From IMG/VR virus record IMGVR_UViG_2506520037_000005, positions 1 to 39,263 of that record: a DNA stretch of 39,263 bases; one strand, given 5' to 3'. The notes under the pieces are model-generated. The model saw only the letters and a program-made list of their open reading frames with translations. It ran no database searches and was not told where the DNA came from. Positions within the stretch are counted from its first letter, which is position 1. Each line of letters begins with the position of its first letter. The stretch comes from a virus. Its lineage: Duplodnaviria; Heunggongvirae; Uroviricota; Caudoviricetes. A program made the translations under genes and the position numbers. This document shows positions 11,123 through 12,535 of this stretch, piece by piece.

Positions 11123-11141
11123 TCCAGTTACTTTGTAGTGG

Positions 11142-12040
11142 TCAAGTAATATTGGCCACGGTTTTACAGTAAAAATGGTATCTGTTCTCTGACTCTTCCG
11201 GCGTCAGCCCACCGTTATAATGGTGAGGTCTGACGCTGTTGTAGTAGTTCAATATGTAATCATTAATTTGCTGCCGGGCCTCGTCCTTGCCTGCGTAACC
11301 ATTCGTTGGCACCCATTCTGTTTTCAGACTGCGGAAGAAGCGTTCCATGGGGCTGTTATCCCAGCAGTTTCCCCGCCGACTGACGCTTTGATTTATTCTG
11401 CAACGCCAGAGAAGTTGTTGATATTTAAGGCCTGTATACTGGCTTCCCTGGTCGCTATGGAACACGACATCCCGGGGTTGGCCACGCGTCTCATAGGCCA
11501 TCCGCAGGGCACTGCTTATCAGTGCGGTATCGGCATGCGCTGACAGACTCCAGCCGATAACCCTGCGGGCAAAAAGATCCATAACAACCGCCAGATAGCA
11601 CCAGCGATTTCCTGCCCAGAGATACGTAATATCTCCACACCATACCCGGTCTGGCTCCGGTACTGCGAACTGACGCTCAAGCAGATTCGGCAGGCTGGTA
11701 TGCTCCTGACGGGCATTTTTATACTGATGTTTTCCGGGCTGACAACTGCTCAGGTTCAGATATTTCATCAGACGTCCGGCACGGTAACGGCTCATCGGGA
11801 CGCCGTTTTGAGTCAGCATTTCAGCCAGAGTGCGCGCGCCCGCAGAGCCCCGACTTTGGTTCCACGCCCGGCGTATTTCGCTGCACAACCTGACTCGTGC
11901 CGGATTAACCGTATCGCGTCGTTTTCGCCAGTACCGGTAACTGCTGCGGTGTATTTCCAGAGCAGAACACAGGCTGACAACCGTGTGGCTGTCACTTAGT
12001 CTGGCGGCTATCGTGAACCGTTCAGCGAGTCGGACATTAA
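11142..12040 (-). CDS. IS3-family transposase OrfB (DDE catalytic domain), made as an OrfAB fusion by -1 frameshift
   Basis: DDE/integrase-core sequence (WCGDITY...DQGSQYT...); its frame is -1 relative to orfA, as expected for the IS3 family. Confidence 0.85.
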
Positions 12041-12319
12041 GAGCGCGGTAGCCTTTTTTAATATCGTATTTTGTTCCTCCAGACGGCGAACTTGCTTTTC
12101 CAGCTCGCGGATACGTTGCTGGTCTGGAGTAATGGGTGTGGCAGAGGGCGTAATACCCTGGCGCTCTCGCCTGAGCTGGCGTACCCAGCTCTCAAGCGTG
12201 GTTGAACCGACATTCATCGCTTCACTGGCCTGTCGATATGAGTAGCCCTTATCAACAATCAGCTGTGCACATTCCAGCCTGAACTCAGGGGTGAAGGTTC
12301 GTTTGGTTTTCTTGTTCAT
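12008..12319 (-). CDS. IS3-family transposase OrfA (HTH)
   Basis: [28 protein letters not shown]... resembles IS911 OrfA as recalled; A_AAA_AAG slippery motif near its 3' end (about 12053-12059). Confidence 0.85.
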
Positions 12320-12535
12320 TAAGTCACCTGTTTTGTGTTGTGGTGAGAATATCACCTTTCATCAGGTGGCCAAATTTAGTGTGCCACTACACTTTGACTG
12401 AAGTAATCCCCGGTCTTCATGACGTGACCGGGGCTATTGAATTACCGGAGGACAACTGGTTTTTTACTATGACAGAAATTCCTCAGGGCATGGAGCTAAC
12501 AATTAATGAGAAAGGCGAACCAATACTAATTGAGG

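Follow-up and report, generated by a model that had tools for sequence, protein, structure and literature searches.

Our reading of this locus, which we hold to be likely, is that an IS3-family element related to ISEc31 inserted cleanly between codons 8 and 9 of mini-tfa', a short gene that is the putative partner of the alternative tail-fibre tip Sv', and that it probably impairs the state of the fibre switch in which Sv' is expressed. The window is the whole stretch of DNA that was analysed, 39,263 nucleotides, and holds a P2/186-like prophage of the E. coli W lineage. An IS insertion in a phage switch of a known kind is in itself routine genome wear in a strain of laboratories and industry; what is corrected here is the reading of the locus, in which the alternative fibre would have a partner gene and the IS would have broken it. 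The product of that gene, conserved, 65 aa in length and annotated essentially as hypothetical, resembles the fibre-binding half of Tfa alone. In the sequence of events that we propose, one copy of a widespread IS3-family element transposed into the fibre segment of the rybB-site prophage, and its target was not a spacer but mini-tfa', which carries a Shine-Dalgarno sequence of its own, overlaps the Sv' stop and matches the fibre-binding N-domain of Tfa without the C-terminal trimerisation domain.

In the description of the E. coli W genome (Archer et al., 2011; PMC3032704) this prophage is named "Rybb*W (P2)"; it is located between rybB and the integrase end, adjoining ybjL. Positions 1-10793 and 13593-33610 of the window are 100% identical to E. 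coli W NC_017635, and the 2832 bp between the crossover sites (10776-13607) are inverted with respect to that genome, with one mismatch. Other parts of the prophage carry apparent cargo. The interval from the CI repressor (36028-36678) to the integrase (from 38211) holds a KAP-family P-loop NTPase (36679-38130, plus strand) which, with a match of 4e-82 to PDC-S20, a candidate defence protein in PADLOC, is probably anti-phage cargo carried by the prophage. A protein with a GmrSD_N domain (26909-28690, minus strand; PADLOC NsnA-like, 8e-31) adjoins the portal gene, a location that we take to be a known P2 defence hotspot. A 314-aa ORF on the opposite strand (17127-18071, plus strand), flanked by the virion morphogenesis gene and baseplate V, is unexplained cargo and has no Pfam or PADLOC match.

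Table 1. Features of the interrupted fibre segment and of its surroundings (window coordinates)
Feature	Position	Strand	Basis or remark
RybB sRNA gene (Rfam)	2700-2778	+	adjoins ogr end of prophage, marks integration site
Serine DNA invertase (Pin/Gin/Hin type)	10145-10717	-	Pfam Resolvase 2e-53, HTH_7 1.5e-15
Left crossover site, core TT 10779-10780	10767-10793	.	27-nt inverted repeat, inversion breakpoints
Sv', silent promoterless alternative C-terminal tip cassette	10781-11122	+	TAA stop 11120-11122
mini-tfa' 5' piece (codons 1-8 and first base of codon 9)	11109-11133	+	GTG start, GGAGG
Left CTT of target-site duplication	11131-11133	.	single CTT at empty site
IS3-family insertion sequence, 1258 bp, related to ISEc31	11134-12391	-	identical copies, ISEc31-labelled relatives
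Transposase OrfAB	11142-12319	-	orfA 12319->12011; orfB in -1 frame to 11142
Rfam isrC (RF01387) match, within IS over 5' end of orfA mRNA	12201-12323	-	150 bits, full length
62-aa IS-fusion ORF, GTG 12379 in IS end	12379-12567	+	AGGTGG 9 nt upstream; WP_014640280.1
Right CTT of target-site duplication	12392-12394	.	
mini-tfa' 3' piece (codons 9-65 and stop)	12394-12567	+	last 32 nt antisense to tfa 3' end
Full-length tfa (201 aa), chaperone for expressed tip Sv	12536-13141	-	Caudo_TAP 1e-31, phrog_105 1.5e-95
Tail fibre gene H (constant part and Sv, 504 aa)	13141-14655	-	Phage_tail_fib 7e-65, Collar 3e-14
Right crossover site in fibre gene, core AA 13606-13607	13593-13619	.	inverted repeat partner

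A simple insertion of an ISEc31-related element

The insertion is a simple transposition that produced a 3-bp CTT duplication and cost the prophage no DNA. When the empty site was rebuilt by removing the IS and one CTT and was then searched for in 5,426 complete E. coli genomes, the resulting 896-nt sequence was found uninterrupted at 100% identity in 3 genomes and at 90-99.9% identity in about 75 further ones, with at least 80% of it contiguous in 78 genomes. The IS-free relative in strain 82.0311 (L001) is collinear with the window across 7740 nt that include the site, without a single gap and at 98.6% identity. Because the sequence without the IS and with a single CTT exists intact in relatives, the CTT on both sides of the element is not a chance match, and the target duplication proposed in the first-pass annotation stands. 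That annotation had also entertained an IS-associated deletion of a second chaperone gene, tfa', and had suggested a comparison with IS-free relatives. The comparison refutes the idea: the distance from the Sv' stop to the tfa stop is the same 152 bp (rather than the roughly 175 bp first estimated) in genomes without the IS, and since these relatives, identical over 896 nt and gapless over 7.7 kb, have the same short spacing, no tfa' was deleted.

The element begins 11 nt 3' of the Sv' stop (11120-11122), as had been noted, and shows all the hallmarks of the IS3 family: a size within 1.2-1.5 kb, TG...CA ends, orfA and orfB frames, the slippery heptamer and a duplication of 3-4 bp. Its ends, TGTAGTGG...CCACTACA, form an imperfect inverted repeat in which 27 of the 45 terminal positions agree. 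Pfam recognises HTH_Tnp_1 in orfA and rve in orfB, and the heptamer A_AAA_AAG lies in frame 0 of orfA at 12059->12053 (minus strand), 45 nt before the orfA stop; orfB would be reached by a predicted -1 frameshift at this heptamer, and PGAP annotates the copy in E. coli W as a joined 1178-nt CDS, "IS3 family transposase, programmed frameshift". Domains, heptamer and the limits 11134-12391 thus bear out the original description of an IS3-family element of about 1258 bp.

With respect to identity, the element recurs unchanged (100%) on hundreds of chromosomes and plasmids of E. coli, there are 938 records with a match of 99% or better, and elements 92.5-93% identical to it carry the PGAP label ISEc31. 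We considered and rejected IS911 itself: the annotated IS911A of K-12 is about 67% identical over the first 383 nt, well below the 95% criterion, even though the ends resemble those of IS911. The earlier designation "IS911-like ends" holds for the ends; the nearest label for the whole element is ISEc31. Being less than 95% identical to ISEc31, the element may have a separate ISfinder name. A side observation concerns the Rfam family isrC, named "Hfq-binding sRNA", which is matched over its full length inside the IS at the 5' end of orfA; given that location, isrC looks like the leader and start of an IS3-type transposase mRNA and not like an independent sRNA gene.

A conserved short gene behind the Sv' tip

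In IS-free relatives the gap between Sv' and tfa is filled by a 65-aa ORF, mini-tfa', which is present in RefSeq as the CDS WP_001440573.1. Its GTG start at 11109 gives a 14-nt overlap with the Sv' stop, a GGAGG motif (11097-11101) lies 7 nt upstream, and the IS sits after codon 8. In loci of the E. coli type, the convergent genes tfa and mini-tfa' overlap tail to tail by 32 nt (12536-12567); in three loci (L033, L034, L038) the two genes are 86 nt apart, and mini-tfa' keeps its length without any overlap. The protein matches phrog_5400 at 1.4e-25 and has at least 120 homologues, mostly of 57-73 aa and down to 59% identity, in at least seven genera of Enterobacterales (Escherichia, Enterobacter, Salmonella, Citrobacter, Hafnia, Xenorhabdus and Erwinia), across which its length is held at 57-65 aa. 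A phmmer search against 1.84 billion representatives likewise returned a small family, mostly of 55-85 aa; longer apparent homologues (128-174 aa) were considered as full-length Tfa proteins and rejected, being frameshifted fusions with Sv'. Residues 1-55 form a conserved core that begins with a nearly invariant MR(L/Y)FN and is followed by a variable tail, and the start that overlaps the Sv' stop is ATG in some lineages and GTG in others.

The linkage to the tip is strict. A scan of viral contigs seeded with Sv' yielded 34 loci, of which 32 are not cut by a contig end, and mini-tfa' follows Sv' directly and in the same overlapping position in all 32, including those with tips just 59-64% identical and those without the overlap between mini-tfa' and tfa. 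The corresponding scan of genome contigs with Sv' as the query found no confirmed relative. Over codons 5-55, the window and the relative L012 differ by 16.2 synonymous and 8.8 non-synonymous substitutions (dN/dS 0.11); in more distant pairs the synonymous sites are saturated and pN is about 0.2. Judged by this pattern of sequence change, purifying selection acts on mini-tfa', a conserved gene and a constant companion of this type of tip. The first reading had placed the IS in an empty gap and had concluded that the alternative fibre lacks a chaperone. The former does not survive, as the IS lies inside a selected, Sv'-linked gene; of the latter, it stands that there is no full-length tfa' of the Caudo_TAP kind, and it fails in that a conserved 65-aa ORF is present and interrupted by the IS. 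A GC-rich hairpin at 12407-12432 was rejected as a terminator, lying as it does within the mini-tfa' coding sequence, with no T-tract and a fold z-score of -1.5; scans for promoters and terminators gave background level.

What kind of protein this may be is suggested by a cousin in Cronobacter phage JK004, gene_1 (128 aa), which comes after a Gp53-like tip (gene_2). Profile alignment by hhalign joins the mini-tfa' family to residues 1-59 of gene_1 (probability 98%, E 6.5e-14), and residues 36-127 of gene_1 match Caudo_TAP at 1.4e-20 (74 bits); mini-tfa' ends at the point where the C-domain of gene_1 begins, and against Caudo_TAP (PF02413) it gives no match at E up to 1, the conserved C-domain being absent. 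As it aligns with the N-terminal part of a protein whose C-terminal part is Caudo_TAP, mini-tfa' corresponds to the N-terminal domain of a Tfa. In the modular model derived from Mu Tfa, contact with the fibre tip is made by the variable N-domain, and trimerisation is the task of the conserved C-domain (PMC9608196). By the marks of the Tfa family, mini-tfa' thus has the N-domain homology, the position 3' of the tip and the orientation of the tip, and it lacks the C-domain and the family profile.

The predicted fold is compatible with this assignment. An AlphaFold2 model of mini-Tfa' (pLDDT 89) places residues 1-55 in a compact beta domain, with residues 2-5 as strand 1, and residues 56-65, which are variable and often antisense to tfa, are poorly modelled. 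The best match to this fold comes from Pantoea phage LIMEzero, in a 60-aa protein annotated "tail fiber assembly protein" (probability 0.99, TM 0.55-0.58, E 0.04); in sequence the two are weakly related (hhalign probability 17%). Searched by sequence against solved structures, the mini-Tfa' profile met only chance-level hits (E 0.17 or worse), and the alternative fibre matched in its shaft part alone. The Sv' tip itself matches phrog_2557 at 3e-15 and Gp53-like_C weakly, at 19 bits, below the cut-off of 24.9.

From homology and gene position we infer that the Sv' fibre has in the mini-tfa' product a partner of its own, one that assists its assembly or caps its tip. A broader and more tentative idea, to which we lean slightly less than to its opposite, is that there exists a natural class of "N-domain-only" Tfa proteins of about 55-65 aa that fold or cap Gp53-like tips without a trimerising C-domain, and that the E. 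coli W insertion is a knock-out of one of them. If this is true, E. coli W would offer a natural knock-out and a ready-made test strain; engineers of tail fibres and tailocins need a minimal helper for each tip, and a minimal helper together with a natural mutant would be useful to them.

Two shufflon-like, multi-cassette fibre regions with many tips of about 100 aa came to light alongside these loci, one at 2500-8333 of L037 (IMGVR_UViG_3300009011_000012) and one on plasmid NZ_CP085744 (L041), the latter also with an IS3-family element. In both, mini-tfa' occurs only at the tip of the Sv' type, and most other tips have no adjacent helper. As related Gp53-like tips of about 100 aa in L037 lack any adjacent tfa, this class of tip may not strictly need a helper.

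The fibre switch and the probable effect of the insertion

The original placement of the IS within an invertible segment holds, the segment being a tail-fibre switch of the Pin/Gin type: a serine invertase (in RefSeq, a "recombinase family protein") stands beside inverted sites of about 26 bp, one of which lies inside the fibre gene, and each orientation gives an in-frame fibre. The two crossover sites (10767-10793 and 13593-13619) form a 27-nt inverted repeat that is 81% complementary, and the inversion that distinguishes the window from the E. coli W reference has its breakpoints at them. In flipped genomes Sv' continues the reading frame of the constant part, and the fibre is 463 aa long. 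The tail sheath gene lies further along, past tfa, as does the invertase.

The IS enlarges the invertible segment from 1571 to 2832 bp, close to the first estimate of about 1.6 to 2.85 kb. Whether inversion itself suffers, as had been suggested, can be judged from genomes that share the insertion. The exact Sv'-IS junction is common to 8 assemblies of the W lineage, four in the orientation of the window (CP026085, CP118014, CP104442, CP104206) and four flipped (NC_017664, NC_017635, KO11FL NC_017660, CM135829). Since the insertion is a single event in a lineage in which both orientations are present, inversion must have occurred after it and is not blocked. Both orientations are also seen in the IS-free sister strains 82.0311 and 82.0312 and among the viral loci. 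The G segment of Mu measures about 3 kb, and the enlarged 2.83-kb segment is inside that range; a Pin-type switch tolerates a segment of nearly doubled length. Two of the genomes with this W-specific prophage-IS junction, CP026085 and CM135829, are labelled "DH5alpha" in RefSeq (4.83 Mb); they look like derivatives of E. coli W, not of K-12.

What the insertion does to mini-tfa' depends on the half of the switch that is transcribed. The 5' remnant reads MRLFNPVTL (9 aa) and then meets a TAG inside the IS. At the other end, the GTG within the IS opens a 62-aa fusion in which MCHY replaces the native MRLFNPV and residues 8-65 are kept; it is annotated in E. coli W as WP_014640280.1, and the identical 62-aa protein (P0056) occurs on 45 contigs. 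What the IS takes away is thus the nearly invariant N-terminus, the first beta-strand of the predicted model. In the orientation of the window, the late operon would give the constant part with Sv (Sc-Sv) and then full Tfa; the IS would lie in the silent half, its transposase pointing in the same direction as the late transcript, and would have no effect on the fibre. In the flipped state, as in the W reference, the 463-aa Sc-Sv' fibre would be followed by the 9-aa stub, with the rest of mini-tfa' 1.26 kb downstream, and at best the 62-aa fusion protein would be made, expressed past 1.26 kb of antisense IS. Because only the stub and at best the fusion protein would be made, the Sv'-ON host-range state is probably impaired, on the condition that the mini-tfa' protein is needed. 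As the switch still flips, we regard this as an ordinary insertion that probably cripples only the helper of the spare fibre. According to the description of the E. coli W genome (PMC3032704), the chromosome has no gene that an IS inactivates; an IS that breaks mini-tfa' would be an exception.

Several other readings deserve weight. The absence of a second Caudo_TAP gene from the segment could mean that the alternative fibre has no helper of its own and that the short gap between Sv' and tfa codes for nothing and is perhaps what an IS-mediated deletion of a full tfa' left behind, considering that a 3-bp duplication alone cannot prove simple insertion. This reading has already been refuted by the empty site and 152-bp spacing that IS-free relatives share and by the nature of the gap, which with its overlaps is a conserved 65-aa ORF with a dN/dS of about 0.1, and we give it next to no credence. 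It is also very improbable that mini-tfa' is the decaying remnant of a full tfa', open by chance and functionless, and the IS neutral. Purifying selection, the nearly invariant N-terminus, a constant length across genera, the strict linkage to Sv', a start codon (ATG or GTG) that overlaps the Sv' stop and a high-confidence predicted fold all speak against decay, although mini-tfa' does equal the N-domain of Tfa only, has a full-length cousin in JK004 and ends in a variable, poorly modelled tail (residues 56-65) whose coding sequence often overlaps tfa in antisense.

Unlikely in our judgement, and of a different kind, is that mini-tfa' is functional without being a chaperone (as a permanent tip subunit, as an adhesin cap or as a small protein of another role that is only co-transcribed), or else that the IS-fusion works, in which cases the effect of the IS would be small or different. 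Mu Tfa remains on the mature fibre (PMC9608196), which is compatible with a structural role, and the trimerisation domain to which assembly is attributed is absent from mini-tfa'; the strict linkage to Sv', with no pointer to a role unrelated to the fibre, argues against a function elsewhere. As for the fusion, a Shine-Dalgarno sequence and a GTG supplied by the IS end open a 62-aa ORF that retains residues 8-65 and might keep the function, but it is without the nearly invariant MRLFN, the predicted strand 1, and 1.26 kb of untranslated antisense IS would precede it on the transcript. A broken Sv' partner remains the reading that we prefer.

Relation to known systems

The element agrees with ISEc31 and with IS911-type elements (IS3 family, IS3 group) in its length of about 1.26 kb, its TG...CA ends, an HTH-bearing orfA with a DDE/rve orfB, the -1 frameshift at A_AAA_AAG and the 3-bp target duplication. 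It is 92.5-93% identical to elements that bear the PGAP label ISEc31, whereas IS911 differs, with K-12 IS911A at 67% over 383 nt.

The predicted protein has counterparts of two sorts. With the Tfa family (Caudo_TAP; Mu Tfa, lambda Tfa, P2 G) it shares a gene position right after the fibre tip that is to be served and homology to the N-domain of a Caudo_TAP protein, JK004 gene_1; it differs in being without the defining C-terminal helical domain, the proposed trimeriser of the chaperone (PMC9608196). LIMEzero ORF47 (60 aa) is of similar size, lies directly after a fibre gene and is the best structural match, but its sequence similarity is marginal, it belongs to a lytic podovirus without an inversion system, and its own function is putative.

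The switch as a whole resembles the G segment of Mu (S/U, S'/U', gin), the C segment of P1 and the P segment of e14, all of which have an adjacent serine invertase, inverted sites of about 26 bp of which one falls within the fibre gene, a choice of two C-terminal tips, and natural occurrence in either orientation. In Mu, U and U' are both full length. The present locus differs from these systems in its asymmetric helpers, Sv being paired with a 201-aa Tfa and Sv' with a 65-aa N-domain protein, and in the arrangement of the two helper genes, which are convergent and overlap by 32 nt.
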